Source: Methanomassiliicoccaceae archaeon (GTDB lineage: Archaea; Thermoplasmatota; Thermoplasmata; Methanomassiliicoccales; Methanomassiliicoccaceae). From it: DNA of 64,000 nucleotides. The stretch spans positions 352,001 to 416,000 of the forward strand of contig JAXGZN010000002.1 in NCBI GenBank assembly GCA_040776945.1, given 5' to 3'. The position numbers and the translations under genes were made by a program. A model generated the notes under the pieces. That model made no database searches and was not told the origin of the DNA. It saw only the letters and a list, made by a program, of their open reading frames with translations. Positions 18,052 to 45,926 of this stretch are shown here, piece after piece; the stretch's first letter is position 1, and the number at the start of each line of letters is the position of its first letter.

Positions 18052-19431
18052 ATGGCACTTGCAAGACCACTATCAGTCTTTGATGTGTACGACCGCTTCA
18101 TGAAGGGCAAGAAGGTCACCGAAGCGGAGTGGGACTACCAGATCATACCCACCAACGCGGCGGCGATGAAGAAGAAGTACAACATCAAGTTCGGCAAGGA
18201 AATGATCCCCGAGGACAAGGATCTGAAGAACCGGCTGTTCCAGGCTGGAATGGAGATGCTGGTCACCACCGGGTTCTACAACTCCGATCTCGGCCGTGTC
18301 ATGAACATAACCGAGGAAGAAATCCGGGAAGGGATTAAGAAGACCCCCACCAAGCTTCTCCTGGGAGAGTACCGTGACGCAGCCAGGTTCGAGCCCAGGC
18401 ACGGCAACGACAGGAGAAAACCGATCATCCAGGGAGGGCCGACCGGAGCGCCTGTCTCTGAGGAAGTGTTCGTCCAAGTCATGCAGAGCTACGCCCAGGA
18501 GGCTACTGTAGATACCCTGGTGAACGGCGTCATGGCCACCATCGAAGGCCACAGCGCTACCACCAACACTCCATGGGAGATCAAGGCGGAGCTCGCAGAG
18601 CTCAGGGCAGTGAGGGAGGCCAGAATAAGGGCCGGACGACCATACATGGCCATATAGGGACCTGAGACACCGCTGTCCGCAGCGGGGCGTCTCGCTACGA
18701 ACCTTCTTGGCGGGCTGAGGCCTTGTGACTCCCACGAGTGCTCGCAGCTCAATGAACTAAAGATAGACATGGCAGCCCTCAACATGCTTTCCGGATGGAT
18801 CCTCAACGGGGATACCATCATGATCGAGCAGATGCCGATCTTCGGGGGGTACTGCGGAGGGGTCGAGGAAACTGCCATCTGCGATGTGGCCACCCACCTG
18901 GCGTCGTTCACCCTGTTCAACGGGAACTTCCACCTGGACGGTCCGATCCACATCCGCTGGGGCATCACCACTTCTCGGGAGACGCTGCAGATCGCCGGCC
19001 ACGTGGCCGCCGCGGTCGATGCGAACACCGACCTGTTGATCGCCAACCAGTACTACCCCATATCGGGTCCCTGCACCGAGATGTGTCTACTCGAGACGGC
19101 CGCTCAGGCCATGGTGGACACTGCCTCCGGTCGGGAACTGCTGTCCGGGTCCGCGGCCGCCAAGGGCGTGGCCATGGACAAGACCACCGGTATGGAAGCC
19201 AGGATCATGGGCGAAGCTTCGATTGCGACCTGTGGCATGAAGATCTCCGACGTCAACGAGATACTCGAGAAGCTGGTCAGCTCCTACGAGGGCAACTACC
19301 ACAAGCCTCCTGCCGGCAAGCGCTTCCAGGAGTGCTATGACGTCAATACCGTCAAGCCCACCGACGAGTACCTGAAGGTCTACGACAACGTTGTCAAGAC
19401 CCTGAGGGACCTCGGCCTAGCGATCAAGTGA
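18052..19431 (+). CDS. mtmB: monomethylamine:corrinoid methyltransferase, Pyl at codon 202
   Basis: In-frame TAG 18655-18657 is codon 202, the canonical MtmB Pyl position; E205 and E229 retained; 459 aa; TGA stop. Confidence 0.96.
18629..18696. repeat. 68-nt exact repeat spanning the Pyl codon (inverted copy at 9852-9919); contains the hairpin at 18664-18693
   Basis: gggccggacgaccatacatggccataTAGggacctgagacaccgctgtccgcagcggggcgtctcgct is present in both mtmB genes. Confidence 0.92.
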
Positions 19432-29589: not shown

Positions 29590-30303
29590 TCCCGCACATC
29601 GGAACGGCGATCATCGTTGCCTCCCCGCACCCGCATGCCGTCCGACGCGGCACCGTTCCCCGGATACCCGTTCGAGCGGTCTCCCGTCCTGCATTGGGCG
29701 ATCGATATGCTCGTCCCGCCCCTCCCCCTCCGATCGCCGAACATGAACGGAGCTTCAGCCTCTCGGCCATCCTCTCGATCCATGAGCAAAGGAACCGTTC
29801 GACCGGCGCGAACCTGTCCGGACCGCCGGGGACGGGCTCCAGGCCCCTGTGGGACCGACAACTTGGGGCCGGGGGAAGGAGTTGCACCTTCGAACACGGA
29901 CTTGCGGTCCGCTCCATTGATGCTCTGGCACCCCGGCATTGATGCAAGCTGCCGACCATAGAACTCCGGCATTCGCAGGATGCCAACATGGTACAAGGTT
30001 CCATTGATATTAAACCTGCCTCGCCGACATCGTTGACGATACAGCTGGGGCTGCTCGATGGTCGATGCCATCGATGCCCATCTCAAGGGCCCCTCGAGCT
30101 CATCGCCTAGTGATTCCACAATGCGAAACATCATGACATTAGTTTTATCAATGCATAGAAGAATGAAAGAACGCCCCCCGGCTGAGGGGCCGCCAAGATT
30201 CCAATCCTTGTAGCTCATATGTTTCCTCCAAAATCCCTCTCAGCCGGGCCGGTCCTTTTCTCTCAGCGGATGGCCTCTGCGAGACCGTGGCGCGCAGGTC
30301 GAC

Positions 30304-32145
30304 CTATCCACGTCTCCGCAGGCCGAACACGACCGCGATGGCCCCTGAGGAGACCAGGGCCGCGATGCCCAAATATGCCAGGGGCGGGCCGCTCTCCGCC
30401 TCCATCCTCAGCGAGATCGGCACGCTCGCCTGCGCCGCAGAGATGTTCACGTCAGCCGTCATTACCTGATAACCGTCCTTGGTAACGCTTATGGCATATC
30501 GGCCCGGCGGGACGTCGGCGAAAAGGAAGGAACCATCCCTGTCCGTCGTCGTCCTCATGCCGTTGCTCAAGGCCACAACGGCATCCGACACTGCCTTGCC
30601 GCCGCTGTCAAGGACCACCCCACTGATGCTTTGCCCGTTCCCCTCGGTGGTGAACGACCAACTGTGGCTGAAGGCCCTGCCCTCGATGTCCACGCCGGCC
30701 ACGGTGGCCTGGTAGACCGTGTTCGACGAGAGGGGGACGGAGGGAGTGAAGATCGCCTCGCAGCCTTTCCACGAAACGGAGCCGGAAACCCCCCCAACGA
30801 CGATGCTCACCGTGCTCCTGGCGACCTGGTCCTTGAACGATACGACCACCGGGGCGTCTCGCGGGGCATCGGCGCCGGACGGGAAGACGGTCATAGTGGG
30901 AACGCCAAGGCTCACGGTGAAGGCGGTGGAGGCCTCCACGATGTTGCCTGCCCGGTCCTGGACCCTGACGACCGCGGTGTGTGCTCCGCTGGACAGGGAA
31001 CGGAAGGTATACGACGAGCCGGCAGCGGTCGCCGGGGCGCCGCCGTCCAGCGATACGGTCGCCTTCCCGATCCCGGTGCCGACATCGGACGCTGACCATT
31101 CCACCGTGACCATGGCCGACCCGAAGATGGTGCTTGGGTCCGGAGCGGTCAAGGAAAGCGCAGGCGGGACGGTGTCAACGGTCACCGCCGCCTCGGCCGC
31201 GGCCGGCTTCCTCTCGACATCGGTCGAGTTCCTGGCCAATGAATAGAGCTCGTACCTCCCATCGGCCGGCACCTTGAACTGGACGGGCGACAAGGTGAAC
31301 ATGCCGTCAGGGGCAGAGGGATCGGAATACATCGTCCAAGGGGATCCGCCAGTGCGGTAGTAGAGGGAGAAGCGGTCCGCATCGGTCACGCTCACAGGCA
31401 CCTGGACGGTGCGGCTGTTGGAGTAAGGGCTCAGCCCGCTGATGCGGGATGTCATCGGGGCGGGGAGGACCTTTCCGGTGGTGAGGACCATGTCGTCGAT
31501 CATCACCCCGGGATAGTGGCCCACAGTGTCCATGCTGGTCTTGTACTCCCACTCCATCCAGACCGTCCCGGGCGGCAGCTCGATGACCACCTGCTGCCAG
31601 CCGCCGCTGTCGGCCGCCGGCTGCTTCCACGCCGTCCAGGTCGAGAGGCCGTTGTTGAGGTTAACGCACAGATAGTCGGTGAGCTCGCCGGTGTAGCCAG
31701 GGTCATGCGTCTTGGCCCAGTACCAGAACGACAGCGTCATGCCGTCATAGCGGGCGGCGTTCGGCGGAGCATACCTGACCCAGGAGTCCATGCCTGGGTC
31801 GGGGTAGCCGTTCACCAGGTTGCTGACGCCATTTATGGAGTTCGTCCCAATCTTGGCGCCGTACAGCACAGATGAGGAGGAATGGGCGGTGACGGTGTAA
31901 CCCACCGCTCGGGAGAGCGTGTTCAGCGAGTCGGCGTTGGCACGGCACCACTGGTCGTCATCATGTCCCGCGGCATACTCTCCACGGGACCATCCCAGGG
32001 GCTCCCAATCGCGGATGAATATTCCGATCCCCTCGAAATCGGTGGAGAATATCACCGTCGGCTCGGCGGCCTCGGAGGGCGCCGCCGGCATAAGCACGGC
32101 TGTCATCACTGCTGCAAGGACAATGGCGGCGGTCGCGTTCCTCAT
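30304..32145 (-). CDS. surface protein with shared N-terminal domain plus Ig-like and carboxypeptidase-regulatory-like domains (paralog B)
   Basis: Signal peptide; DQWCR, SFWYWAKT, GVMIDDM; DTVPP, DRAGN, HSWSFTT, ISGVVLDS.G..V..A.V; TM plus RRRG; TAG stop. Confidence 0.85.
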   Translation of the reverse strand: MRNATAAIVLAAVMTAVLMPAAPSEAAEPTVIFSTDFEGIGIFIRDWEPLGWSRGEYAAGHDDDQWCRANADSLNTLSRAVGYTVTAHSSSSVLYGAKIGTNSINGVSNLVNGYPDPGMDSWVRYAPPNAARYDGMTLSFWYWAKTHDPGYTGELTDYLCVNLNNGLSTWTAWKQPAADSGGWQQVVIELPPGTVWMEWEYKTSMDTVGHYPGVMIDDMVLTTGKVLPAPMTSRISGLSPYSNSRTVQVPVSVTDADRFSLYYRTGGSPWTMYSDPSAPDGMFTLSPVQFKVPADGRYELYSLARNSTDVERKPAAAEAAVTVDTVPPALSLTAPDPSTIFGSAMVTVEWSASDVGTGIGKATVSLDGGAPATAAGSSYTFRSLSSGAHTAVVRVQDRAGNIVEASTAFTVSLGVPTMTVFPSGADAPRDAPVVVSFKDQVARSTVSIVVGGVSGSVSWKGCEAIFTPSVPLSSNTVYQATVAGVDIEGRAFSHSWSFTTEGNGQSISGVVLDSGGKAVSDAVVALSNGMRTTTDRDGSFLFADVPPGRYAISVTKDGYQVMTADVNISAAQASVPISLRMEAESGPPLAYLGIAALVSSGAIAVVFGLRRRG

Positions 32146-32394
32146 TCGCCCCACGGAGATATTTAGTTGAGTAGGAATTATTTAAAATCAACTATTATTA
32201 TTCTCACCGTACGGTCCTTGTCGCTCGATGTAAGCTCGGTGGGCGCCCATGGCCCTTCAGCCATCGCCTCCCTGCCCCTCCTGTGCAAAAAGGCGGCCAT
32301 CCTCATGTGCTGGCCCGCCGGCATCGAAAAGGACACCGGGCGAACGGTCGAGAACGCCGCGCGATAGAAGACGCGAGAAGCGCGCAGGCGATGC

Positions 32395-32643
32395 TCACGC
32401 CGTCGCGCTCTGGGCGATCGACGGTCTGGAGGCTCTGCTCATAAGCTCGTGGAAATGCTCCAGCGCGTATTGGTCGTTGATGCTCACGACGAGGACGTAC
32501 TTGTCGCCCTCCATCCTTGCCCCCATGACCATGCCCAATGTGCGGCCGCCAACCTCGAACGGGCAGGACTCCTCGGCCATGAACCTCTCGTACATGGCCT
32601 TAGTGACCTCGTCCTTGGAAGGAGGCGTAATATGCAGGATCAC
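32395..32643 (-). CDS. small hypothetical protein
   Basis: GTG start just downstream of an AT-rich promoter-like region; protein-like sequence. Confidence 0.5.
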   Translation of the reverse strand: MILHITPPSKDEVTKAMYERFMAEESCPFEVGGRTLGMVMGARMEGDKYVLVVSINDQYALEHFHELMSRASRPSIAQSATA

Positions 32644-32816
32644 AAATTGATTATCTAACGAATAGTATAAATGCGATAGTATTCTAATTGCGATTATTGA
32701 TAGCGACACTTGTCCCCGCGCCGGCCGCCGGCACGATAAGGGGCACATAGGCGGTCCGCCGTCCTGCGGACATATTTTAATCCTCCAATATCATAAGAAC
32801 TGCCGGCGAGCAGGGG

Positions 32817-34649
32817 ATGACCGAGACATCTGTTCAAACAGCGGTCCTGAAGGACGGGGCATTGGCCTGGAGCGCCGACAGCAGTGCCTGCCTGGTCTAT
32901 CCGGTCGGCAGGCAGAGGGCCCGCCTGCTTCTCGCCGCCGATCTCCTGGCCGGCTTCGCCGACCGCACCCTCGGCAACGCATCGCTCAGGCTCGCGACCG
33001 CCCTGGAAGGCTGGGAGAGGAGCAGAAGGCAGGCTGCTTCCGACCCCGCACTGACCGATAGGGAGAGAAGGAGCAAAGAGGCATCCATCGGAAAGGAGAC
33101 GGACAAGCTTAGAAAGGAGCTAGGCCAATTGGAAAGCTTCGACAAGGGCCGCTACCTGTACGAGGTGGCCAAGGCCACTCTATTAGAGGACTTCGAGTTC
33201 GGCCAGCTCACCAGCTTGGTGAGGAAGCACATCTCGGAGCGGGACGAGAGGGGGCAGAGCGAGCCGGCGGGCGAGGGGGCTGGGCCGGAGGGCGCTTGGA
33301 CCGCGGTCCAGGTGTCCCCTCAGGACAGGGACCTGCTGGAGGCGGTCCATGCAATCAAGGAGAGCTCGCCCGTATCCAAGGAGCTATTCCTGGAGAAGCG
33401 CATCCTGCCGGCGGCCTGGTTCTTGGAGTGGATGGTCCGCAACGAAGGCCTGGCCTTGGAGCTGGGCCGCTCGGAGCTCAAGGCGATGAAGGCCCTGGCC
33501 CCGCTGGAGAAGGACATGGGGCCCACGCTAATGACCTCTCACCGCGAGATCGTGCGCATGGCATGCGCTCTCCGGGCATTGAGCGGCGCCATGGACCTGG
33601 TCCAAGGAGCGAGGGGCGGGCCGGCGCGGCCGAGGCTGCGAAGCGATTACATCGCCTCCTTCCTACCCGCCTTCGCCGACTACCGCTCGCTGGCCGAGAG
33701 GTTCGACCGGGCCAAGGAAAAGGACCTCGCCGGCATCGTGGTAGTGGGCATGGGCGGCTCGGGCAAGACCACATTCCTTCGGAGATGCTACTCCCTGCTC
33801 CGCAGCGATCCCGAGAACCAAGGCCTCAGCGAGGAGATAGATCCCAAGAGCACCGCCTTCGTGGTCGGCCACATGTTCCGGGACATCACCGTGCCGATGT
33901 TCGACGGCAGGAAGGAGCTGACCCTATGCTGGATGGACACCGCCGGTTCGGAGGACTACCGCCTTCTGGGCCAGCAGCTTACGGCGTCCGTGCGAGAGCT
34001 GAGGAACAGGATGTTCCTGGGGAGACCGGCGGACTACAGCCTGCTGTTCATGTGGTCATATGAGCCCAGCTACGATCCTGGACGCGATGCCCAGGGTTTC
34101 GAGGACGTGCTCACTCGGTTCATGGAGGAGGTCGAGGACCTGGCCTATTATGACCTGGAGCTTCCCGGGAGGACGTACCTGCTTCTCAACAAGGCCGACG
34201 CGGCCGAAGGAAAGGGAACGGCCGAGCGGTTCGCGATCGAGCACGAGAGGCGGTTCCGGGCAGTGATGGAGAGGAAGGGCATGCCCGGGGAATGCCTAGG
34301 CTTCATATCAGTCCTCAACGGCTCGGACAAGGACATCGCGGACCGCTTCTCGGTCACCATGTTCGGTCTATCGGACCGTGAGTGGAAGAGCGCAACGGCA
34401 TCCGTCCGAGCGGGCATAAACCAGGGGATCATGGGAAACCTGCTCGATACGGAGGCCGCCATGCTGTTCAAGCGGGAGGTTTATGATCCGTGCTCAGGCC
34501 TCGGACAGGAGGAATATCTGAGAGAGACGGTCGCATGGATCGATAGGTACCTCCGGACGCCCGGCGGCGCGAACGTTTCGACGAGGGCGCTCCTAAGGAG
34601 CCTCAGGGCGTTCCTGAGCGGGGAGATGGATGGAGATGCGGTCGCTTAG
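32817..34649 (+). CDS. 610-aa protein with a Ras-superfamily-like small GTPase domain and a long helical N-terminus
   Basis: G1 GMGGSGKT (aa 311), G3 DTAGSEDY (aa 374), G4 NKAD (aa 458), G5-like ISVL; TAG stop. Confidence 0.8.
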   Translation: MTETSVQTAVLKDGALAWSADSSACLVYPVGRQRARLLLAADLLAGFADRTLGNASLRLATALEGWERSRRQAASDPALTDRERRSKEASIGKETDKLRKELGQLESFDKGRYLYEVAKATLLEDFEFGQLTSLVRKHISERDERGQSEPAGEGAGPEGAWTAVQVSPQDRDLLEAVHAIKESSPVSKELFLEKRILPAAWFLEWMVRNEGLALELGRSELKAMKALAPLEKDMGPTLMTSHREIVRMACALRALSGAMDLVQGARGGPARPRLRSDYIASFLPAFADYRSLAERFDRAKEKDLAGIVVVGMGGSGKTTFLRRCYSLLRSDPENQGLSEEIDPKSTAFVVGHMFRDITVPMFDGRKELTLCWMDTAGSEDYRLLGQQLTASVRELRNRMFLGRPADYSLLFMWSYEPSYDPGRDAQGFEDVLTRFMEEVEDLAYYDLELPGRTYLLLNKADAAEGKGTAERFAIEHERRFRAVMERKGMPGECLGFISVLNGSDKDIADRFSVTMFGLSDREWKSATASVRAGINQGIMGNLLDTEAAMLFKREVYDPCSGLGQEEYLRETVAWIDRYLRTPGGANVSTRALLRSLRAFLSGEMDGDAVA

Positions 34650-36894
34650 GGACCTCGACGCTGAGCTGGGCAGGCACAATCTCCTGTTCGCCCGGACGCC
34701 GGAAAAGGCACGATTGTGCCGACAGCTGTTGACCGGCAGCGTCCTGCTCCACGGATCGGGAGGGATGGGGAAGACAACCCTCATGCTCCATGCCCTGCGG
34801 GAGCTGGGAAGCATGGGAGGCGGCCTCCAAAGCGCCTCCCCGCCCGTCCCGGACGCTGGGCACTCATTCTACTTCGAGGACCTTAGCGCCTTCATCCGTT
34901 TCCTCGGGGTAAGGAAAAGACCGCTCACGGTGAACAGGGCCTCGATCGCCTTCAGATGGGACGAGGGCGGTGAGAGGAAGGAATCGACCATCACGCTCCG
35001 CGGACGGGGAGCATCGGTCCCCGAGGGCAAGGCCACGCCGATGGCGGCATCGTCACCGATCTTCCAGACCGACCGCCTGGTCGTCCGCTCCACGCTGGAG
35101 GCGGTCATAGGGCCGAGGTTCGACATGGAAGAGGTGGCAAAAAAGGCAGAGCCTACGCTGGCCCGCTTCTCCGAGACCCTGGGGCAGGCCATAGAGCAGG
35201 CAAGGAGAGGGAAAGGCAAGGATGCCATCCAGGGCGCGGGCGGGGGCGGGACCGGAAGGACTATGCCGGCGAGGATCGCAGGCGCCCTGGCCGCGGTCGT
35301 GGACGGCTCGGTCGGGGAGGGGAGCAGGGAGCGCGGCGTCGTCCTGAACTTCCTGGAGGAGGAGCTGGCAGCCCTCGTGGAAGAGTGCAACAGGGAGGTC
35401 TACCTCTCCGCGGCGTCTTTCCTCAGAGCGGAAGACGGACCTGTCCGGCGTTCGTCCCTCCGGGAGTTCGAGGATAGCCTGCTGGAGTTCCTGGACAACA
35501 GCAACCTCGATCGCCTTGTCCCCGGAGAGATGACCTTTTGGAGATGGTACATAGGGATCGATCACTTGGAGAGAGGGGTGCCCGGGTGGACCCTGGACAT
35601 CAAGAAGGAGGCGGTCCGCATGATCTATGAGAAACTGTCGGAGAAGGACGGCTTCCACGCGGTAATGGCCGTGGAGCCCAATCCCGCCCTGATCTTCGGG
35701 CACATGGGGCCAGGAGAGGTCAGGTCCGACAGGGAAGGCGCGGCCATCTCCTCTATGGAGGTCATCATGCCTCCCAAAGACGACCTCGTGCGCGAGAGCT
35801 CCAACTTCATTGTCGAGAACGTCGATGACCTCGGCGGCCTGCGGAAGGCCGATGTGCAGAAGGTGATGGCGGACCTCTACGACCACTGCAGAGGGCGGAT
35901 CAGGCTATACTATCTGGTGCGCAGCATCAAGAACCTTCCCGCGCTGCAAGCGCAGGGGATGGAGCAGGTAGAGCCGGACGCGTCGTTCCTGGACCGGCAG
36001 CTGGGGGATGCCCTGGGCCAGCTGGGCATGCGCTATGAGTACGATATCAGCATCAAGAACCTGCCGGCGGTGCAGCCCCTGTTGGAACTGGCGAGGATGA
36101 GGGAGCGGTCGGCCGCGGAGAGCGCCCCGCAGATATCCAGGAACGTGATGTCCTGGCTCCTGGACGTCCACCAGGTAGGCCCGGCGGTGGGGGCCGGCAG
36201 ATACCTGGCCGCCATGGAGGCCTATGGCGTCCTGAAGGTCGACGGGGACCGCATCGGGTTCTTCGACCCCTATGTGGAGTGGGAGATGCGTTCTTTGGCC
36301 AGGTCTGCGGACCATGGGGACCCTCCTCTGGCGATAGCCTTCCGTTCGGTCGACCGGCTGAACCGCTTCCTTTCCGTCGTGGACGAGGCAGACGTCCTGG
36401 CCCTCTCCAGCTACATCTCGGCGTCGCTCTCGAAATGGTCGGCCACGTCCAGGACCGATCCCGGGATATATGCCTCTCTGGTCTCCGCTCTGGAGGGCGG
36501 AGGGGACTTTCCCGACCGCAGGAGAAAGCTCGCTGCCTTGGCGGCCAGCGCCGTCCTCGGCGGCGTGCCCTTCCCCTCGGTCGACCTAGAGGGCCGCCGC
36601 CGGCAGATCATCGCTGAGCTGCTGAGGGGAGCGGTCAACGGCAGCGACCCGCGGCTGGCCTCGCTGGCCTCCCGGGCCGCGAGGAAGATGACCGAGCTGG
36701 CGGGGGCCAAGGGATGCGTGCTCTGCGGTGCTCACTTAGAGGACGGCCAGGTCATTTGCGCTTCCTGCGGAGCGGACTACCGGGACATATGCCCGTCCTG
36801 CGGAGAGAGTCTGGCCCCTCACTTCGCATACTGCGCCGGCTGCGGGGCCGAGGCGCCCCGGGACCGGACGGCCCGCCAGGGGACCGAGCTCTGA
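34630..36894 (+). CDS. STAND/archaeal-type P-loop ATPase with winged helix and C-terminal double zinc ribbon
   Basis: Walker A GSGGMGKT, Walker B-like YIGIDHLE, wHTH-like GVLKVDGDRIGFFDPYVEW, four CxxC pairs; overlaps the upstream gene by 20 nt. Confidence 0.78.
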   Translation: MEMRSLRDLDAELGRHNLLFARTPEKARLCRQLLTGSVLLHGSGGMGKTTLMLHALRELGSMGGGLQSASPPVPDAGHSFYFEDLSAFIRFLGVRKRPLTVNRASIAFRWDEGGERKESTITLRGRGASVPEGKATPMAASSPIFQTDRLVVRSTLEAVIGPRFDMEEVAKKAEPTLARFSETLGQAIEQARRGKGKDAIQGAGGGGTGRTMPARIAGALAAVVDGSVGEGSRERGVVLNFLEEELAALVEECNREVYLSAASFLRAEDGPVRRSSLREFEDSLLEFLDNSNLDRLVPGEMTFWRWYIGIDHLERGVPGWTLDIKKEAVRMIYEKLSEKDGFHAVMAVEPNPALIFGHMGPGEVRSDREGAAISSMEVIMPPKDDLVRESSNFIVENVDDLGGLRKADVQKVMADLYDHCRGRIRLYYLVRSIKNLPALQAQGMEQVEPDASFLDRQLGDALGQLGMRYEYDISIKNLPAVQPLLELARMRERSAAESAPQISRNVMSWLLDVHQVGPAVGAGRYLAAMEAYGVLKVDGDRIGFFDPYVEWEMRSLARSADHGDPPLAIAFRSVDRLNRFLSVVDEADVLALSSYISASLSKWSATSRTDPGIYASLVSALEGGGDFPDRRRKLAALAASAVLGGVPFPSVDLEGRRRQIIAELLRGAVNGSDPRLASLASRAARKMTELAGAKGCVLCGAHLEDGQVICASCGADYRDICPSCGESLAPHFAYCAGCGAEAPRDRTARQGTEL

Positions 36895-36974
36895 CCGACG
36901 GCGGTGCGGGAGGACGGCGGACCGCCGATGCAGTCGCCTCTAAAGGAACGAAGGTCGAGATATTAGGATTCGGA

Positions 36975-37012
36975 AGAAAAGGATAAAAGAGAAGAGGGGG
37001 CGGCGCCCCGTT
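36975..37012 (-). terminator. GC hairpin plus pyrimidine tract after the surface protein gene
   Basis: Minus strand reads GGGGCGCCGCCCC followed by TCTTCTCTTTTATCCTTTTCTTCC. Confidence 0.5.
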
Positions 37013-37017
37013 GCTCC

Positions 37018-38754
37018 CTACTTCCTGCGCCTGATCAGCAGGAACGCTCCGGCCGCGGCCGCAAGCACGATCGCGGCGATCCCGATCATTACCAGCGGGT
37101 CGGTGAAGAACGAGCCTGGGCCGCTGCTTCCGACGGAGAAGGTCTTCGAGCTGACGAGGACGTTCCCGTCCGAATCGGTGGCCTTGATGGTCAGGGTATG
37201 CTCGCCCGTCTTGAGGCCGGCGAAGGCCACCGACCTGCCGGACGGGTCCATGCTCACCATCTCGCCGTCGTCGAGCGAGTATTGCAGGCCGACCAAGGTC
37301 GCGCTGTCAAGGGCAACTGTGAAGTTGACCGTCACGTCCCCGTTGGGGGTTATCGACACATCATTGAACGTGATCCCCGGGGTCCCGTGGGAAAGGGTGA
37401 TCGCCGCGCTCTTGATGCTCTCCACGTTTCCGGCCAGGTCGGTCGCGTAATACTCGATGGTGTAGCTGCCGTCCCTGGCGAAGCCAACACCTGAGGAGTA
37501 CTCGTTCCAAGCGCCGCCGTTCACCCGGTAGTAGATGGCCTTGACCCCGGAGACAGCGTCGGTCGCACTTAGGGTGAAGGAAACGGACCCCTCGTAGCTG
37601 GTGCCGTTCCCGTTGCCGGAGAAGGCGATGGTAGATGCCGGCCTGGTGAGATCGATGGTGGTCGTAGCGTCCGCCGCGTTCCGCGCCGGCTCGATAACAT
37701 CGAGGTTGTCCGTGCCTCGAGTGAAGAACTCATAGGCACCCTCGCGGGGCGCGGTGAACTGGATGGTACGGGTGGTGTTGGGGAACTTCCCATCCGGCCT
37801 CAGGGATGTCTCGTACTTGATCCAGTTCCCGGTCCCGTCGATTCGGTAGTAGAGGTCGATCCACTTCATTCCCACCTGGGGATCGTTGTTCGTCCAGTTG
37901 ACGTTAAAGGTCAGGTTGTTCTGGTAAGCATCAAGGTAGTCCACGGCCGTGACCAGGTTCTCCGAGGGGAGCAGGTCGGTCCCGACCACGGTGATATCGT
38001 CGAGGAACACGCCCTTCCTCATCCCTCCGTTCACCATGTTGACGAACGGAGCCGGGCTGCTCGCGTCGCCCCCCGCCGGAGCGACGGTCCCGGACACGAA
38101 CTCGAAACCGACCCAGGTCGAGTTGCTGGGAATTACAATGGACTTCTGGATCCACCTCATGCTCCCCGCCTCCGCCTCGGTATCGGTCCATGCCACGTGC
38201 TTCACGCGGTTGTCGCCGGTCCCGGTGAAGTAGATGAGGTTGAGGAAGTCGTACCCCACGCTCTCGCCGGTCAAGGGCTGCTTGGCGTCCGAGGCCCCGG
38301 TGTCGGACCAGAACCAGAAGTTCACGGTCACGGTCCCATAGTATCTCGCCTGGGAGTTGAGCTGCTTCCGCATCACCGCGTCCATCCCGGTGTCGTAGCG
38401 GAGCACATGGCTCTTCTGAGTGGGATCGCTCGAAGCGGTCACATTGACGTTCTCCACCTGGGTCCCGTTGGCGTAGTAATGGGAGTTGAACCCGTTCTTG
38501 GCGCAATAGATCGAGAAGGTCCCGCTGTGGACCTCATGCTTGGTCCTGCACCAAGTATCATAATCGTTGGCGGTGTTGGCGTCATAACGGTCCCATTGCG
38601 CGGCCCAGAGGTTGAAGGACCCTTCTTCCGCGCCTTCGGAGATGAACGTCTGCTCGGACGGCAAGGCCGCGCTCACCCCATGAGGGATGGCCGTGACCAG
38701 CGTCGTCGCGCACAATAGAAATGCAATGGCTATGCTGAACCAGGAGCTTTTCAC
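37018..38754 (-). CDS. surface protein with Ig-like/OmpL47-like domains (paralog C)
   Basis: Signal peptide; clear homology to 6530-8593 (WCR, RYDTG, FWFWSDTG, GFEFVSG, YATDLAGNVE); TM plus RRRK; TAG stop. Confidence 0.87.
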   Translation of the reverse strand: MKSSWFSIAIAFLLCATTLVTAIPHGVSAALPSEQTFISEGAEEGSFNLWAAQWDRYDANTANDYDTWCRTKHEVHSGTFSIYCAKNGFNSHYYANGTQVENVNVTASSDPTQKSHVLRYDTGMDAVMRKQLNSQARYYGTVTVNFWFWSDTGASDAKQPLTGESVGYDFLNLIYFTGTGDNRVKHVAWTDTEAEAGSMRWIQKSIVIPSNSTWVGFEFVSGTVAPAGGDASSPAPFVNMVNGGMRKGVFLDDITVVGTDLLPSENLVTAVDYLDAYQNNLTFNVNWTNNDPQVGMKWIDLYYRIDGTGNWIKYETSLRPDGKFPNTTRTIQFTAPREGAYEFFTRGTDNLDVIEPARNAADATTTIDLTRPASTIAFSGNGNGTSYEGSVSFTLSATDAVSGVKAIYYRVNGGAWNEYSSGVGFARDGSYTIEYYATDLAGNVESIKSAAITLSHGTPGITFNDVSITPNGDVTVNFTVALDSATLVGLQYSLDDGEMVSMDPSGRSVAFAGLKTGEHTLTIKATDSDGNVLVSSKTFSVGSSGPGSFFTDPLVMIGIAAIVLAAAAGAFLLIRRRK

Positions 38755-38977
38755 GCCGGGCGATTGAAAATATCTCCGTATAAATCTTGCTCCTTGATTG
38801 GTACGTTGGTGTGCTTAACGACCAATAGGGGGCACCTGCTCGACCGGTCCGCGGCAGCGTGCTGATGGACGGCGAGGGGCGGTCCGCAGCGTCCATTTCC
38901 CAGCGTCTTCTTGGTGTTAAGGAATTGATATGCAAGGGGAACCATTCATAATGGGGCACGTGATGAGGTAGAGACCG

Positions 38978-41446
38978 ATGGTCGAGGCCAATGACCGACC
39001 GAGCTGCGGTCCAGCGGTCGACAATTCGCTGCATGAGGACATCAAGGCGCAGATAGAGGAGGGGCTTGACCGCTCAGGCTTTTTAATATTCGTTCTGAGC
39101 AGTGAGATGAGGATAGAGTTCATCAGCAGATCGGCGGCGGCCTTCATGGGAAGGCGGCCTGAGGACGTGATCGGCCGCACGCCCGGGGACCTCGGTCTTC
39201 CGGTGCAATTGCATGAGTCCATCAAGCGGCTGGTCAACGAGGCGCTGACCTCCAAAAAGGTCCTGAGAGGAACATACGTGGCGAGCTTGAGGGAGATCAA
39301 GCAGTTCGAGTATGAGATCTCGCCAATCTTCGCCGGGGGCCCCAGGCCGAAGGCCGTCCTCGCCTTTGTCTATGACCGCACCGCCCAGGCATTGGAGAGG
39401 AAGGTGCTGGAAGCCATCGTCAAGGTGAACGACATAGTGAGGCCGTCCCTTGGTTCGGATGACCTTGTGAAAAGGACCGTACGCGCTTTGTCAGGCTCGC
39501 TTAACGACGACGCCTTCGCCCTGGTGATAGATGACAACGGAACTTGGAGGGTCGACCACTCGTTCGACCTACCTCCGGAGGAGATGAGCTCCTTGGAGAA
39601 CAGCATGGTCTGCTTGATCTCCGGCCTGATCGGCGGGAACGCGCCCGTGTCGATAGGCGACATTTCGCGCGATCCCCGGGTTCCGAGCGAAATCGCCCAC
39701 AGGACCGGGGCCGGCCCCCTTCTTGTGATCCCGGTGGAACTGGCCCACGGCGTGAAGATCGCCCTGCTGTTCTTCCGCTTCGATGATCGGCCGTTCGGCA
39801 GCATCGAGATGGACCTGGGGGAGAAGATGGCGTCCTCGGTCGCCGTGGCCATCACCGACATGCTGATGGTCCGGGACCTCAGGGCCGCCGATCTGGAAAA
39901 GGAGAGCATGCTGGTCCGCCTGTCCAAGGAAAGGGAGAACCTGGCAGCCATCTTCGAGGCCAACCCGTTGGCCCTGGCCCTGTTCCAACGGGACGGGGAG
40001 AACCTTCGGCTGGCGCTATGCAGCAAGATATTCCGGGACGATACGTACGGGGCCGTGCCCCACCCCCTCGAGGGAAAGCGGATGGAGGAGCTTGGCATCC
40101 CCGAGGAGACCGCCTATCTGCGGAAGATGGCGGAAGCGGCCCTGAGGACCGGCCAGACCCAGGTGTCCGAGGAACATGTCCACCATACTGGACGGGAACA
40201 GTTCCCAACGAAGATAATGATGGCCCCGATCTCCCGGCAGCCCGACACGGTCCTCATGGCCGGCGTGAGCATATCGGACCTGGTCAACGCCAAAAAGCAG
40301 CTGGAGGAGTACGCCACCCGGATAGAGGCGGAGCGTGTGCGGCTCCGCACGATAATCGACACCTTGCCGGTCGGGGTCGTGCTGGTCGATGCCTCCGGCA
40401 AGGTCATCGAGACGAACAGCACCAGAAGGGCCGAGATCTGGGGCACCTCGCCCAAGGACCGGGCCTTGGCCAACATCTATCCGTCAAGGGCGAGATGGTC
40501 CAACACCGGCATGTCCGTGGCCAAGGACGAGTGGCCTATCGCACGGGCCTTGAGGAAGGGGGAATGCGTCAAAGGCGAAATGATCGATATAACCAGGTTC
40601 GACGGCAAGCGGGGCACGGAGCTGATATCGGCCGCCCCCATCCACGATGCCTCGGGCAAGCGCATCGGGGCCGTAGGAATCATGCAGGACATAACCGAGC
40701 AGAGGCAATTGGAACAGGACGCCGTGGAAGCGAAGGAACGTGCGGAAACGTTCCTCGACCTGCTCACCCATGATGTCCAAGGGCACAACGCGGCCATATC
40801 CGGGTACATCCAGATGGCCCTGTCCAAGGACAAGCAGGGTAAGCGGAAGGACGACCTACAAAAGGCCTTGGAGGCCATCAAGGCGTCCACCGAACTGATC
40901 GATACCGTGCGGAAGATACAGATGGTGGAGACGCACGATACCGCACACGGCCACATAGAGCTGTCCTCGACATTGGAAGATGTGGCCTCCGAGATAACGG
41001 CGGTCGGAGGGAAGAGGGTCCACATCGAGATGAGCACCAAGCCGGACAGCTTCATACTGGCATCGCCCATGATCCGGGAGGTCTTCATGAACCTGCTCAT
41101 CAACTCGGTCAGGCACTCCGAGGAGGAGGTCCATATAACGGTGAGGCAGAACCGCATCTATGACGGCGGGCGGGAATATCACAAGTTCATCATCGAGGAC
41201 GACGGGCCGGGCATACCGGACGATGTCAAGCCGAGCATCTTCCTGCGCAAGTATCGCGGCCGGACCAAGGCCAAGGGCAGCGGCCTCGGACTGTACCTCA
41301 CAAAAAGGCTGGTGGAGGAGCATGGAGGGAAGATATGGATGGAGGACCGCGTGCCCGGAAACCATGCCAAGGGAGTAAGGTTCATCGTCCACCTCCCGAC
41401 CGTGTCCATGCCCTCCGTCCACGCGACAGGCACCGAGCACGCATGA
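38978..41446 (+). CDS. PAS/GAF sensor histidine kinase
   Basis: PAS and GAF segments; DLLTHDV H-box, NLLINSVRH, DDGPGIPD, GSGLGL. Confidence 0.9.
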   Translation: MVEANDRPSCGPAVDNSLHEDIKAQIEEGLDRSGFLIFVLSSEMRIEFISRSAAAFMGRRPEDVIGRTPGDLGLPVQLHESIKRLVNEALTSKKVLRGTYVASLREIKQFEYEISPIFAGGPRPKAVLAFVYDRTAQALERKVLEAIVKVNDIVRPSLGSDDLVKRTVRALSGSLNDDAFALVIDDNGTWRVDHSFDLPPEEMSSLENSMVCLISGLIGGNAPVSIGDISRDPRVPSEIAHRTGAGPLLVIPVELAHGVKIALLFFRFDDRPFGSIEMDLGEKMASSVAVAITDMLMVRDLRAADLEKESMLVRLSKERENLAAIFEANPLALALFQRDGENLRLALCSKIFRDDTYGAVPHPLEGKRMEELGIPEETAYLRKMAEAALRTGQTQVSEEHVHHTGREQFPTKIMMAPISRQPDTVLMAGVSISDLVNAKKQLEEYATRIEAERVRLRTIIDTLPVGVVLVDASGKVIETNSTRRAEIWGTSPKDRALANIYPSRARWSNTGMSVAKDEWPIARALRKGECVKGEMIDITRFDGKRGTELISAAPIHDASGKRIGAVGIMQDITEQRQLEQDAVEAKERAETFLDLLTHDVQGHNAAISGYIQMALSKDKQGKRKDDLQKALEAIKASTELIDTVRKIQMVETHDTAHGHIELSSTLEDVASEITAVGGKRVHIEMSTKPDSFILASPMIREVFMNLLINSVRHSEEEVHITVRQNRIYDGGREYHKFIIEDDGPGIPDDVKPSIFLRKYRGRTKAKGSGLGLYLTKRLVEEHGGKIWMEDRVPGNHAKGVRFIVHLPTVSMPSVHATGTEHA

Positions 41447-41525
41447 GCGGCGGACCTCGCGCCCCACCGTGCCGAAGGTTATCATGTTTATATCCTGAAT
41501 ACGCCTTCGCATGGACGGTGCAAGG

Positions 41526-41780
41526 ATGCTGAGGGAGTCGCGTTTTTTTAGGGCCTTCGTCCTTACCGCGTGGTTCTATACCTTCCTGCTATGGTCGTAC
41601 ATCGCGGTCAGGATCATAACGTACGATTACATCGTATTTGACCCGTTCATATGGTCGATACCTTGGCTGTCCTTCGGGCAGCTGGGCGCGATGGCGTTCA
41701 TCGCCAGCTCGGTGCTCATGTTCACGTACCTCTATCTCTGGGGGTTTGGAAGGACTTGGCGGCCCGGCACCGGCCATTGA
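41526..41780 (+). CDS. small two-TM membrane protein
   Basis: Two hydrophobic aromatic-rich segments; 84 aa. Confidence 0.65.
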   Translation: MLRESRFFRAFVLTAWFYTFLLWSYIAVRIITYDYIVFDPFIWSIPWLSFGQLGAMAFIASSVLMFTYLYLWGFGRTWRPGTGH

Positions 41781-42142: not shown

Positions 42143-42799
42143 TCAACCGATCATGAGGGACGAGAGCACAGTATTGCCCTCTCGTGCCCTGGCGGGAAGC
42201 CTCTTTCCGCAGGTTGGACAGGAGCGGAAGCTGAGGAGGACGATGCCGCCGCATTCGGGGCACTCCGCCGTCGGCGCCCTAGGGTCAAATCCGCAGTAGG
42301 GGCAGAGGTCAGGGTCTCCCCTCATCGTGCGGCCGCAGAGCGCACAAGCGTACCCGCCACCCGGTGGCGACCTCCCGGCGAGGCCAGCGGGGGGACCGGC
42401 GGCCACGGAACAGAGGGAGTCCATAGCGCTCTCCGCCCCACGCACGTCATGGGCCAATATCCTCTCTTCGACGGCATCCAACTCCTTGGAGGTCATGCCC
42501 AGGGCCCTGGACCCCCTCTTCATCCCTGCCAGGCGGTGGAGCGACGGGAGCATCAGGCCGACGCGGCCCTCGTAAAGGGATATCGCCGACCAAGCTTCGT
42601 TGACCATGCCCTTGGCCAGCAGGTCCTCGATGGAGCGGAGGTCCGCCTCCAACGCCTGCTTGGCGCAGCCCAGCTCCGCGAACGGTCCCTTGGAAAGCTC
42701 GCCCCTTAGCTCGATCACCCGCTGATGCGGCCGCACCATCGAATCAAGGCACGCGCTGATGTTCCTCGTTCTCGTAAGCAGTTCCCGGGCAATGTCCAA
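42143..42799 (-). CDS. helical protein with C-terminal double zinc ribbon; start uncertain (TTG 42799 or ATA 42811)
   Basis: CALC...CPYC...CPEC...CPTC. Confidence 0.7.
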   Translation of the reverse strand: MDIARELLTRTRNISACLDSMVRPHQRVIELRGELSKGPFAELGCAKQALEADLRSIEDLLAKGMVNEAWSAISLYEGRVGLMLPSLHRLAGMKRGSRALGMTSKELDAVEERILAHDVRGAESAMDSLCSVAAGPPAGLAGRSPPGGGYACALCGRTMRGDPDLCPYCGFDPRAPTAECPECGGIVLLSFRSCPTCGKRLPARAREGNTVLSSLMIG

Positions 42800-42807
42800 G
42801 GCCGGGC

Positions 42808-43545: not shown

Positions 43546-43569
43546 GTTTATAAATATAATATTATAAAC
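43546..43569. promoter_or_regulatory. TATA-overlapping inverted repeat GTTTATAA-N8-TTATAAAC
   Basis: Perfect 8-bp arms about 55 nt upstream of the 43624 start. Confidence 0.55.
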
Positions 43570-43623
43570 ATAAACTGAAGGGCATGGCAGGACCGGTCAG
43601 CCGCCGGACATAGGGGCGATCCC

Positions 43624-45909: not shown

Positions 45910-45926
45910 GCGGTCTCGCGGCCTCC

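Follow-up and report, generated by a model that had tools for sequence, protein, structure and literature searches.

Architecture of P1, P2 and P3

We have analyzed a window of 64,000 nt from a Methanomassiliicoccaceae archaeon (assembly GCA_040776945.1, contig JAXGZN010000002.1, positions 352,001 to 416,000, forward strand). Two overlapping genes lie on its plus strand, P1 (32817..34649, 610 aa) and P2 (34630..36894, 754 aa). P1 is a large, divergent switch protein predicted to bind GTP, coupled with the Cdc6/STAND-type ATPase P2 in a small accessory cassette of this methanogenic archaeon. An initial annotation of the DNA had described the two reading frames with an overlap of 20 nt, and as open reading frames they are indeed present. 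In the other six genomes that carry P2, however, its N-terminus reads MRSL, matching an ATG at 34636 in the window (which gives 752 aa). The conserved overlap is therefore 14 nt rather than 20; it is 14 nt in six of the seven genomes and 4 nt in one.

The domains of P1 were assigned from homologs and a predicted model (pLDDT 83, pTM 0.74), and its motifs were examined in an alignment of 13 sequences that are 43-83% identical to the window protein; twelve other full-length relatives and one fragment were found. These data show that the core of P1 is a TRAFAC-class G domain (aa 301-519; 33717..34373) in which G1, G3 and G4 are complete and serine replaces the catalytic glutamine. The motifs proposed initially all recur in the family. 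The P-loop GMGGSGKT (G1, aa 311-318; 33747..33770) is invariant in 13/13 sequences, extending through T319. The candidate G2 or switch I motif IDPKST (aa 341-346; 33837..33854) is also invariant in 13/13, and T346 would be the Mg-binding threonine; the model has a pLDDT below 50 at residues 343-348. At G3 (DTAG, aa 374-377, followed by S378; 33936..33950) the whole stretch C371-W-M-D-T-A-G377 is invariant, and residue 378, the position of the catalytic glutamine in Ras and Rho, is serine in twelve sequences and alanine in one. N458, K459 and D461 of the guanine-specificity motif G4 (NKAD, aa 458-461; 34188..34199) are invariant, as is S498 of the G5-like ISxL.

The label Ras/Rho-like proved too specific. 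Residues 300-519 match structures of Rag/Gtr, Arl2, EF-Tu, RhoE, MglA and Roc to much the same degree (Z 12-14.7), with Gtr1 (4arz_A) at Z 14.7 (VIA; rmsd 3.0, 169 aligned), LokiRagO (8yl2_A) at 14.3, EF-Tu at 13.5 and RhoE at 13.0. The best Foldseek matches are RhoA, RhoC and Rab11 (E 2e-4). None of the Ras, Roc and small_GTP models comes near its cut-off (12.6, 13.3 and 13.5 bits against 21.6, 27 and 42.5, respectively; Ras is the Pfam model). No small-GTPase subfamily is preferred. P1 thus shares its fold and its G1, G3 and NKxD motifs with Rag/Gtr, Arf/Arl, Rho and Roc proteins, but differs in its length, in extensions of 300 aa at the N-terminus and 90 aa at the C-terminus, and in the serine.

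The N-terminal domain (aa 1-300; 32817..33716) comprises four short strands and then long helices in the model, in agreement with the initial description of some 300 mainly helical residues. It is the fastest-evolving part of P1, with a mean identity of 47% vs 70% for the G domain. No homologs were found outside the P1 family among 1.84 billion representative sequences; fold searches barely covered this domain. A roadblock or longin fold had been suggested as a possibility; no such order of secondary structure is seen in the model, the domain having been searched within whole P1.

P2 belongs to a family of 14 proteins (12 others at full length and one fragment). Its model (pLDDT 74, pTM 0.57), alignments and structure matches show a Cdc6/STAND-type AAA+ module with nucleotide-binding domain, helical lid and winged helix, together with an insert, a variable helical region and a double zinc ribbon. 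Walker A (GSGGMGKTT, aa 42-50; 34753..34779) is invariant from G44 to T50, bearing out the assignment as a P-loop ATPase. The long insert noted initially is seen in the model as roughly 210 aa ahead of Walker B (aa about 99-300; 34924..35529), with four long beta strands and a helical bundle. Foldseek also returns RuvBL1/2 over about 500-550 alignment columns; RuvBL, we presume, carries an insert at the equivalent position. In the Walker B strand (WYIGIDH, aa 306-312; 35545..35565) I310, D311 and H312 are invariant. The second acidic residue that is usual here is histidine, so that ATP hydrolysis by P2 is uncertain. The helical region (aa 561-690; 36310..36699) is the least conserved part, at 43% mean identity. 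It is followed by the double zinc ribbon (aa 696-739; 36715..36846), whose four CxxC pairs had been recognized at the outset; all eight cysteines are invariant, and the segment passes the Pfam DZR cut-off of 27.3 bits with a score of 30.3.

Residues 1-560 of P2 fold as the Cdc6/STAND module (Z 14-16.4), aligning with ORC2, Cdc6 and STAND structures including their winged-helix domain, and the predicted winged helix therefore stands. The highest score is for Aeropyrum ORC2 (1w5t_A, Z 16.4, rmsd 5.5, 316 aligned), and near it are the archaeal ATPases SSO1545 (2fna_A, 15.8) and PAB2304 (2qen, 15.4), in which an AAA+ domain likewise precedes a winged helix. One might thus see in P2 an Orc1/Cdc6 paralog that has diverged and serves DNA replication or the handling of chromosomes, P1 being a GTPase associated with the origin; in the available text of PMC10927574 the haloarchaeal GTPase OapA/ArvA was first noted for association with replication origins. 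Yet the ORC2 score is tied with those of plant and animal STAND proteins (NRC4 15.9, Dark 14.8, CED-4 14.1), no Cdc6/ORC family model matches P2, and P2 differs in its large insert, some 200 extra C-terminal residues, its zinc ribbon and its accessory distribution: four of the 11 genomes in the genus lack the module, and it is absent at a syntenic site in G045. We consider this explanation very improbable.

Among STAND NTPases (Apaf-1/CED-4/NB-ARC, NACHT and Avs) the same 560 residues superpose on the nucleotide-binding, helical and winged-helix module; EfAvs5 gives Z 12.0, and Foldseek also finds Avs3, SAMD9 and NOD2. The variable helical region is placed as are the sensor regions of STAND proteins. 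P2 nevertheless falls below the model cut-offs (AAA_16 21.1 vs 32.6 bits, NB-ARC 14.0 vs 23.5), and differs in the insert and the D-H Walker B, in having a zinc ribbon at its C-terminus and no N-terminal effector domain, and in its obligatory pairing with a GTPase.

A third linked gene, P3 (42143..42994, minus strand), was delimited by ortholog alignment. Its start is uncertain: ATG at 42994 gives 283 aa and TTG at 42799 gives 218 aa. P3 is small and helical, and at its C-terminus has a double zinc ribbon (42206..42346, minus strand) that is shown to be homologous to that of P2 (hhalign probability 96.8% over 59 columns). The window copy scores 25.9 bits on Pfam DZR, below the cut-off; three orthologs pass (29.8, 32.2 and 33.2 bits) and one fails (20.7 bits). 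No membrane segment was found in P2 or P3, and no membrane-spanning or hydrophobic segment in P1. The initial annotation had mentioned neither P3 nor the cassette-like presence and absence of the genes.

Distribution and linkage of the module

The P1 and P2 families are orphans. A search of 1.84 billion representative sequences with P1 gave seven matches; P1 occurs in 7/201 genomes of the order, all of one genus, and full-length P2 in the same seven. No relatives of the pairing were detectable outside that genus in these two sets. The initial annotation had not recognized the pairing; neither protein could be placed in a curated family, and literature searches found no published account of the two together. 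The pairing itself is real and conserved, P1 and P2 being adjacent and overlapping in all seven genomes. Their percentage identities, paired by contigs of equal length, run in parallel (65/63, 64/62, 64/62, 55/56 and 43/42 for P1/P2). Full-length matches to P3 (E <= 1e-71) occur in exactly the same seven genomes, out of 11 in the genus, and always within 10 kb of the pair; the remaining four genomes give matches to its zinc ribbon only. P1, P2 and P3 are under purifying selection, with dN/dS of 0.22 (G021 vs G029), 0.22 and 0.29, respectively.

The module is found only in this Methanomassiliicoccus-type genus and is patchy within it, being present in six of the 10 other genomes. In G045 (99% complete) the flanking genes are in order, and both P1-P2 and P3 are absent, at two separate sites. 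The data show that gain or loss affects P1, P2 and P3 jointly. At the first site window positions 32674..36984 are replaced by 751 bp (blastn breakpoints 32673 and 36985). The cassette is bracketed by a 20-nt inverted repeat (32746..32765 and 36911..36930), which scores 17 against a maximum of 12 in shuffled sequences and is unique in the genome; the other six genomes yielded no copy of it.

Alignment of the seven genomes shows a promoter-like element common to P1 and P2, upstream of P1 (32764..32781, plus strand). This BRE/TATA-like element, which from its consensus we take to be an archaeal promoter, lies about 40 nt ahead of the P1 start codon and is followed by a conserved GGTGAG-type motif; columns C148, G153, A154, T157, T159-T162, A164 and T165 of the upstream alignment are invariant in 7/7 genomes. 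Contigs from RNA libraries (four runs from four studies), which may contain DNA, cover P1, P2 and P3 without mismatches. Two of these contigs run across the P1/P2 junction (X2, 34404-34908; X3, 34327-35033), although a single transcript is not thereby proven.

P1 and P2 could in principle be mere neighbors with unrelated functions, since neither is in a known family and their functional link is inferred. That is extremely improbable in view of the 4-14 nt overlap in every genome, the identical phyletic pattern across 201 genomes, the joint loss in G045 and the parallel divergence.

Neighboring genes and known systems

The surface-protein genes flanking P1-P2 were described initially as paralogs, which is so (27% identity, E 1e-26), and as part of the setting of the pair. 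The pair is kept in 7/7 genomes, but its position between these genes only in the two closest relatives. The link matters for a reading in which the module is a lineage-specific gene regulator, P2 being a MalT-like ATP-dependent STAND transcription regulator, P1 its GTP-dependent co-regulator and nearby envelope or surface-protein genes the targets. P2 is predicted to have both a winged helix and a zinc ribbon through which it might bind DNA, and SSO1545 and PAB2304 are among its near-top matches. Envelope genes are numerous in the window, Ig-like surface-protein genes lie no more than about 2.5 kb from a module gene in five of the seven genomes, and a PAS/GAF histidine kinase is nearby in four. 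Against this, the adjoining surface proteins differ in family across genomes; the same genes S1 and S2 occur together with the kinase in G045, which lacks the module; and the S3 family is found in module-less genomes, its best matches in G054 and G037 being far from the module. No DNA-binding family model matches, and no conserved operator was found beyond the promoter element. Such a regulator seems unlikely.

A role in membrane remodeling or vesiculation was also considered, by analogy with ArvA, ArvB and ArvC of Haloferax, the zinc-ribbon protein serving as a GAP-like regulator. The gene order of that operon is the same in the available text of PMC10927574 (a GTPase, the next downstream gene and a less tightly linked zinc-ribbon protein), and the G domain of P1 is similar to Arf, Arl and Rag. 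But ArvA is there a single-domain GTPase with an N-terminal amphipathic helix, from a study set limited to proteins of at most 250 aa, whereas P1 has 610 aa, no hydrophobic segment and no amphipathic helix that we identified. ArvB and ArvC are DUF2073 and DUF2072 proteins in the same account, and none of the three Arv families matches P1, P2 or P3 at E <= 1. ArvA is also described there as widespread and apparently vertically inherited, in contrast to an accessory module of one genus. We regard a vesiculation device as improbable.

The DO-GTPase/GAP1 conflict systems (Kaur, Burroughs, Iyer, Aravind 2020, PMC7159879) also share features of organization with the module. As portrayed in the text available, the gene of a TRAFAC GTPase directly precedes that of a large constant partner in an accessory neighborhood, zinc ribbons are part of the system, and a third component, all-helical or of Ig/FNIII type, occurs. 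ESM Atlas feature matches for P1 include DO-GTPase clusters (score 0.90), a lead only. The families differ, with no match to Pfam DO-GTPase1/2, GAP1 or GASH at E <= 1. By comparison with that text, the partner of P1 is a P-loop Cdc6/STAND ATPase and not GAP1, the zinc ribbons are at the C-termini of P2 and P3 and not at the GTPase N-terminus, and a single GTPase gene is present instead of two. The Ig-like neighbors here are not conserved with the module.

A place in defense had been raised at the outset. With PADLOC, P1 and P2 matched nothing above P-loop noise (AriA, E 0.0022; PtuA, E 0.039) and P3 nothing at all; PHROG gave no match apart from the zinc ribbon. Candidate defense genes are beside the module in only one of five contexts scanned, that of G054, where three of them adjoin P3; in the other four the neighbors are ordinary genes. 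Of the earlier reading as a whole, then, the conserved GTPase/STAND pairing has stood; the Ras/Rho label, the surface-protein link and a match to defense systems have not.

A proposed GTPase-gated switch

The most likely interpretation of P1-P2 is a GTPase-gated STAND switch, a function that we infer. More fully, and tentatively, we favor a self-contained accessory cytoplasmic NTPase-switch module of P1, P2 and P3, with P1 gating P2 in a conflict-type role, a reading to which we give somewhat less than an even chance. The switch module is suggested by the motifs and folds, strict co-occurrence, adjacency with overlap and the conserved promoter-like element, and by parallel divergence, purifying selection, RNA-library coverage, the accessory cassette and the lack of membrane segments. 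Standing against it and the conflict role are the ordinary neighbors, D311-H312, and several negative results: there is no recognizable effector domain, the PADLOC and PHROG searches had the outcomes given above, diversifying selection is not apparent from gene-wide dN/dS, and the family shows no sign of wide horizontal spread. Confinement to one genus is unusual for defense systems.

On its motifs P1 is expected to bind GTP through NKxD, and might hydrolyze it slowly, or only with the help of a partner. In complex with P2 it would gate an ATP-dependent conformational change or oligomerization, by analogy with STAND switches. P2 would signal onward via its winged helix and its zinc ribbon, which would bind either nucleic acid or a partner protein, and P3 may be an adaptor or antagonist that acts via a zinc ribbon of that type. 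The fast-evolving N-terminal domain of P1 and the helical region of P2 are the likeliest sensing or interface surfaces. The biological role is the least certain step. Patchy presence in the genus, cassette replacement and the three candidate defense genes in G054 point to conflict, for which GTPase-centric and STAND systems with zinc ribbons are a precedent in the available text of PMC7159879. The module may thus provide these methanogens with an anti-virus or anti-mobile-element sensor switch, its logic analogous to that of the bacterial GTPase-centric and STAND systems.

An accessory three-gene unit

We have analyzed two overlapping genes on the forward strand, one encoding a protein of 610 amino acids with a GTPase domain (P1, 32817..34649, +) and the other a Cdc6/STAND-type ATPase of 754 amino acids (P2, 34630..36894, +). 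The ORF listing confirmed both reading frames and the 20 nt overlap between them reported in the initial annotation. In the six other pair-bearing genomes P2 starts with MRSL..., a start equivalent to the window's ATG at 34636, and the conserved overlap is 14 nt in six of the seven genomes and 4 nt in genome G054. Comparison of gene neighborhoods, a check that had been proposed, found P1 and P2 next to each other in all seven genomes, always overlapping and in an unchanged order, and in each of them an invariant BRE/TATA-like element (32764-32781 in the window) and a GGTGAG-type motif lie upstream of P1. The two proteins have diverged in parallel; their identities to the window proteins on contigs equal in length are 65/63, 64/62, 64/62, 55/56 and 43/42% for P1/P2. 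Between genomes G021 and G029 the dN/dS ratio is 0.22 for P1, 0.22 for P2 and 0.29 for the small zinc-ribbon protein P3, with values of 0.14-0.35 for three neighboring genes, and P1, P2 and P3 are under purifying selection. No membrane-spanning segment was found in any of the three.

An apparent natural fusion of P1 and P2 (P0031, 337 aa) was rejected, because its match to P2 breaks up into short in-frame islands of the kind that an error-ridden assembly typically produces. An apparently split P1 in genome G051, seen as two matches, is broken at an ambiguous base of that assembly. A 20 nt inverted repeat brackets the cassette in the window (32746-32765 and 36911-36930). Its arms are complementary at 19 of 20 positions and each contains an 11 nt palindrome; it scored 17 against a maximum of 12 in 30 shuffles, and occurs nowhere else in the 2.17 Mb genome. 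It is present in one genome of the seven, with nothing comparable in the other six, and the idea that it generally accompanies the module was discarded. No Rfam RNA family was found in the window between 30000 and 46000.

The window genome is 99.8% complete in two contigs and contains P1 and P2 in one copy each. A word-indexed search of 5.8 billion proteins returned 14 sequences for each of the two proteins, made up of the window protein, 12 full-length relatives and one fragment, and the P2 family profile retrieved the same 14 proteins. The only named relatives of the two come from a Methanomassiliicoccus MAG (Thermoplasmatota). The P1 profile, run exhaustively with HMMER against 1.84 billion representatives, gave seven matches at E ≤ 0.001 (two full-length and five fragments), and no longer, fused form of P1 was found among them. 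Within the order, P1 was detected in 7 of 201 sampled genomes, all belonging to the genus of the window (where six of the ten other genomes carry it), and in none of the 190 that represent the remaining 36 genera. Full-length P2 occurs in exactly the same seven of the 201 genomes, the remaining matches covering the zinc ribbon only. The families are thus closed and restricted to a single genus, in which four of the 11 genomes lack the module.

P3 (42143..42994, −; start uncertain) has a conserved helical region followed by a C-terminal double zinc ribbon. It is present at full length (E ≤ 1e-71) in exactly the seven pair-bearing genomes; the other four genomes of the genus, one of which (G081) is just 67% complete, gave generic zinc-ribbon matches only (E ~1e-7). 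Its position relative to the pair varies. P3 lies upstream by ~0.9 kb in both G021 and G029 and by ~0.6 kb in G075, and downstream by ~40 bp in G054, 5.3 kb in the window, ~6.4 kb in G051 and ~9.6 kb in G037. All eight zinc-ribbon cysteines are invariant in the P3 alignment. Three of five orthologs pass the Pfam double zinc ribbon model (PF12773) with 29.8, 32.2 and 33.2 bits, while the window copy (25.9 bits) and that at locus L018 of G054 (20.7 bits) fall below the cut-off of 27.3. The homology between P2 and P3 is restricted to the zinc ribbons (hhalign 96.8%, 59 columns), and the idea that P3 is a stand-alone copy of the C-terminal module of P2 was rejected, the common part being the ribbon alone.

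A natural knockout is provided by G045, a genome that is 99% complete, lacks the module and keeps the local gene order. The surrounding genes have identities to the window of 80% for a hexapeptide transferase, 73% for an HD protein, 56% for a kinase, and 50, 67 and 48% for three Ig-like surface proteins (S1, S2 and S3, respectively). The DNA similarity ends at window position 32673 and restarts at 36985. In place of the 4.3 kb that hold P1, its promoter and P2, G045 has 751 bp. The site of P3 is occupied by a glycosyltransferase and a 162-aa ORF, with no P3. The loss or gain of P1-P2 and of P3 at two separate sites of the same block is the strongest evidence for the mutual dependence of the three genes, and the contrast with G045 shows that the module is accessory. 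The only ORF within the 751 bp (6253-6540 of locus L027, −; 96 aa) has a weak ribbon-helix-helix match (RHH_8, E 0.005), and could represent a different cassette occupying this position.

A small ORF of 66 aa (MYERFMAEES..., 32395-32595, −) lies between S1 and P1 and has no Pfam match. It is conserved in G037, G051 and G045 with 42-53% identity, in the last of these within the same block, between S1 and S2, and RNA-library contigs cover it (32267-32626 in run X6); the longer ORFs that overlap it on either strand appear to be spurious. As its conservation is limited to those three genomes, it was assigned to the flank rather than to the module.

Do the surface proteins form part of the unit? 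S1 (30304..32154, −) and S2 (37018..38754, −) are both secreted, C-terminally anchored Ig-like proteins, and the pair is indeed flanked by two paralogous surface-protein genes (27% identity, E 1e-26), as had been noted. Ig-like genes occur within ~2.5 kb of a module gene in five of seven genomes, but do not make up a single family. Members of the S3 family are also found in genomes without the module, and the best S3 matches in G054 and G037 are far from it; S1, S2 and the kinase stay together in G045 where the module is absent. The Ig-like neighbors were therefore rejected as a conserved fourth component, and the suggested link to surface-protein control is not maintained.

Of the words sampled from the pair, up to 71% were found in sludge and digester metatranscriptome runs. 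Contigs from four runs of four studies were placed on positions 30000-46000 of the window, and cover P1, P2, P3 and their neighbors, every listed piece without mismatches. Two span the P1/P2 junction (34404-34908 in run X2 and 34327-35033 in X3), and two start near the P1 ATG, at 32812 (X2) and 32815 (X6). Contigs assembled from RNA libraries show neither a single transcript, nor a level, nor a true 5′ end, and may include DNA; they support, but do not prove, expression of the module genes. At 42633, inside the P3 ORF, contigs of all four runs depart into a shared different sequence, and upstream of that position the sampled strains are probably not identical to the window. At 38111-38267, inside S2, contigs of two runs skip 127 or 155 bases or differ in letters, which suggests strain-level variation in the length of S2.

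Elsewhere the window encodes PAS histidine kinases, a corrinoid protein, pyrrolysine biosynthesis enzymes and the monomethylamine methyltransferase MtmB. The MtmB gene (18067-19431, +) has a single in-frame TAG at codon 197 of its translated stretch (~18655-18657), the expected pyrrolysine codon; an ORF on the opposite strand (18073..18735) is probably spurious. The pyrrolysine cluster (12979-16904, −) contains PylD-like, ATP-grasp (PylC-like), radical SAM (PylB-like) and class II aaRS core (PylS-like) genes, and adjoins a RACo-type corrinoid activase (11342-13174). PylB and RACo were tried as phylogenetic yardsticks for the genus and abandoned, because paralogs gave inconsistent identities. 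Five tandem paralogs with a FemAB-like Acetyltransf_6 domain (52035-57915, +) adjoin a Wzt-type ABC ATPase (50599-51843) and a polysaccharide flippase (60655-62172), in what looks like an envelope-glycan or peptide-bridge cluster.

The GTPase-domain protein P1

The sequence motifs of P1 were examined in an alignment of 13 family members, with 43-83% identity to the window protein. The G1, G3 and G4 motifs claimed in the initial annotation are invariant in all 13. The P-loop GxxxxGK[ST] is present as GMGGSGKT, within the invariant GMGGSGKTT of residues 311-319. G3 (DxxG) corresponds to D374-T-A-G377 in the invariant CWMDTAG of residues 371-377, and N458, K459 and D461 of the guanine-specificity motif NKxD (NKAD) do not vary. 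S498 is likewise invariant. T346, the candidate switch I threonine of G2, lies in IDPKST (341-346), which is without variation in the 13 sequences; in the structural model this loop has pLDDT < 50. At position 378, equivalent to the catalytic glutamine Ras Q61 and Rho Q63, there is serine in 12 members and alanine in one, so that glutamine is lacking and the serine noted earlier holds for all members but one. A glutamate, E379, is found five residues past D374 of DTAG. The N-terminal domain is the least conserved part of the protein, with a mean identity of 47%.

An AlphaFold model built from the 13-member alignment was confident (pLDDT 83, pTM 0.74). Residues 1-300 are predicted to form four short strands and long helices, followed by an alpha/beta domain (304-519) and helices (520-601). 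The order of secondary structure in the N-terminal part, where a check for a roadblock or longin fold had been proposed, differs from those of both folds. The top Foldseek matches of P1 were RhoA, RhoC and Rab11 (E 2e-4 to 5e-4, TM by target ~0.6, 15-19% identity). VIA-align of residues 300-519 gave Gtr1 (4arz_A) with Z 14.7 (rmsd 3.0, 169 aligned), a Lokiarchaeal Rag-like GTPase with Z 14.3, the tubulin-cofactor complex entry 9edr_G with 14.1, EF-Tu with 13.5, RhoE with 13.0, MglA with 12.9 and the LRRK2 Roc domain with 12.3, and a structure search independent of Foldseek agrees with this picture. Among the best 50 rows of each of two fold searches, 50/50 align to the G domain of a GTPase entry at Z ≥ 11.

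Sequence models place the protein less precisely. No Pfam family reaches its cut-off, the best matches covering the P-loop only (score/cut-off in bits: AAA_16 20.7/32.6, Ras 12.6/21.6, Roc 13.3/27), and NCBIfam small_GTP scores 13.5 bits with a cut-off of 42.5. A profile of the family found nothing significant among PDB sequences, the best being a GPN-loop GTPase at E 0.048, again in the P-loop only. Pfam detects no zinc ribbon in P1. The ESM Atlas connected P1 with TRAFAC and DO-GTPase clusters, and P2 with AAA_22, AAA_16 and nSTAND clusters, in both cases at the level of a lead (scores 0.89-0.91). The modeled region 301-519, in which the G1, G3 and G4 nucleotide-binding motifs are complete, is best described as a predicted TRAFAC G domain that can be placed in neither the Ras nor the Rho group. 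The earlier 'Ras/Rho-like' label is accordingly too specific, since the domain matches Rag, Arl-type, EF-Tu, Rho, MglA and Roc structures alike and the Ras, Roc and small_GTP models stay below cut-off.

The ATPase P2

The P2 Walker A sequence G44-G-M-G-K-T-T50 is invariant in the alignment. The Walker B strand WYIGIDH (306-312) is conserved; D311 is followed by an invariant histidine rather than by an acidic residue, with E314 two residues on. In the model (pLDDT 74, pTM 0.57) the Walker A half and the Walker B strand are separated by an insert (residues ~99-300) that consists of a beta meander of four strands and a helical bundle. Foldseek matched Avs3, SAMD9, EfAvs5, Cdc6, PAB2304, Apaf-1, NOD2 and RuvBL1/2 at E 3e-4 to 3e-2. 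A module of nucleotide-binding, helical and winged-helix domains is present, residues ~1-560/600 of the model aligning with NRC4, Dark, CED-4 and RPP1 (Z 14-16, 281-321 residues). Individual VIA-align scores, for matches spanning residues ~1-560, were 15.9 for NRC4, 15.8 for SSO1545, 15.4 for PAB2304, 14.8 for Dark and 14.1 for CED-4.

The highest of all was Aeropyrum ORC2 (1w5t_A; Z 16.4, rmsd 5.5, 316 aligned), with 1fnn_A at 12.8, and P2 shares the AAA+ and winged-helix fold of Orc1/Cdc6. An Orc-like role for P2 is nevertheless less likely, as no Cdc6/ORC family model matches and the module is accessory rather than core. P2 similarly shares Walker A and the tripartite module with STAND NTPases, and none of the models NB-ARC, NACHT, AAA_16 and nSTAND1-6 passes (AAA_16 21.1/32.6 and NB-ARC 14.0/23.5 bits); a fragmentary relative reaches 25.1/27.7 bits with nSTAND6, spanning 35 residues only. 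The P2 profile found nothing significant among PDB sequences (best E 0.0057, in the zinc-finger region). The sole region above a curated cut-off is the C-terminal double zinc ribbon at 696-739 (PF12773, 30.3 bits, cut-off 27.3), with four CxxC pairs and all eight cysteines invariant. Before it lies the most variable part of P2, the helical segment 561-690, with a mean identity of 43% and no match to a repeat family. Model, structural alignment and Pfam together agree with the original description of a STAND-like ATPase with a long insert, a wHTH and four CxxC pairs. P2 thus appears as a Cdc6/STAND-type AAA+ module with lid, winged helix, large insert, variable helical region and zinc ribbon.

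Relation to described systems and proposed role

The initial annotation did not recognize the pairing of P1 and P2, and we too found no description of it in open-access literature or bioRxiv, although the supplementary tables of Kaur et al. 2020 (PMC7159879) may list archaeal systems. P1 shares fold, G1, G3 and NKxD with the Ras-superfamily/TRAFAC small GTPases and differs in lacking the catalytic glutamine. Kaur et al. describe DO-GTPases as having a conserved glutamate in Walker B and N-terminal zinc ribbons on the GTPase; P1 has no such ribbon. Models for DO-GTPase1/2, GAP1-N/M/C, GASH and FNIII gave no match at E ≤ 1 to P1, P2 or P3, and here the Ig-like neighbors are not conserved with the module. 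A membrane role like that of ArvABC is also less likely. In that system (PMC10927574) ArvA is a single-domain GTPase, ArvB is DUF2073 and ArvC is DUF2072, whereas P1 has 610 aa and both DUFs are absent at E ≤ 1 from the three proteins. In short, the folds are shared with Ras/Rho, STAND and Orc1/Cdc6 proteins, but membership there and in the DO-GTPase/GAP1 and ArvABC systems fails at the level of family models. The module resembles a two-switch NTPase system and belongs to none of the described systems.

In the comparison with defense libraries, PADLOC matched no family to P2 or P3, and to P1 only AriA (E 0.0022) and PtuA (E 0.039), which are P-loop noise. Pfam detected no effector domain family in P1 or P2, which separates them from Avs and other known defense systems, and PHROGs matched the zinc ribbon only. 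Candidate defense families (Fic/SoFic/PDC-S04, PDC-M38A/PD-Lambda-5_A and PDC-S02) were matched in one place only among 45 neighbor proteins of five contexts, by three successive genes next to P3 in G054 (L018 14854-18326); two ABC transporters had generic PADLOC matches. A defense-island context was not seen in four of the five contexts scanned.

The three genes constitute an accessory, cytoplasmic unit built on two nucleotide switches. Judging from its NKxD motif P1 would bind GTP and, lacking the catalytic glutamine, may hydrolyze it slowly or with the help of a partner. Because the genes are translationally coupled and strictly co-inherited, P1 and P2 are proposed to form a complex, in which P1 would control the ATP-dependent switching of P2. 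The winged helix and zinc ribbon of P2 would carry the output, and P3 would act as an adaptor or antagonist. The main rival to a sensor is a regulatory role, with P2 as a DNA-binding STAND protein. We tentatively prefer, at somewhat less than even confidence, a GTPase-gated P2 switch unit with a conflict-type sensor role. That role is favored by the behavior of the unit as an accessory cassette, its patchy presence in the genus, and analogy to GTPase-centric and STAND systems as set out by Kaur et al. (PMC7159879). The basis for it is thin, given no effector domain, no defense-island context in four of five cases and a single genus. A more elaborate version, which we consider rather unlikely, is an undescribed archaeal sensor in which P1, with a putatively new N-terminal domain of 300 residues, gates the Cdc6/STAND ATPase, the zinc-ribbon adaptor is the third part, and the unit is moved or replaced as a cassette (here within the unique 20 nt inverted repeat) and acts against methanogen viruses or mobile elements.

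The two great families of signaling switches driven by nucleotides are the GTPase switches and the STAND ATPases; to our knowledge, obligate pairs of the two with translational coupling are rare. P1 and P2 are orphans in sequence, yet have confident predicted folds. They provide a clean natural contrast of presence and absence in otherwise syntenic genomes, and their genes occur in sludge and digester metatranscriptomes. The restriction of the module to a single genus limits the weight of the finding. The defense and regulatory repertoire of methanogens is poorly known, and the module offers a tractable case of the lineage-specific invention of a signaling or conflict device in these organisms.
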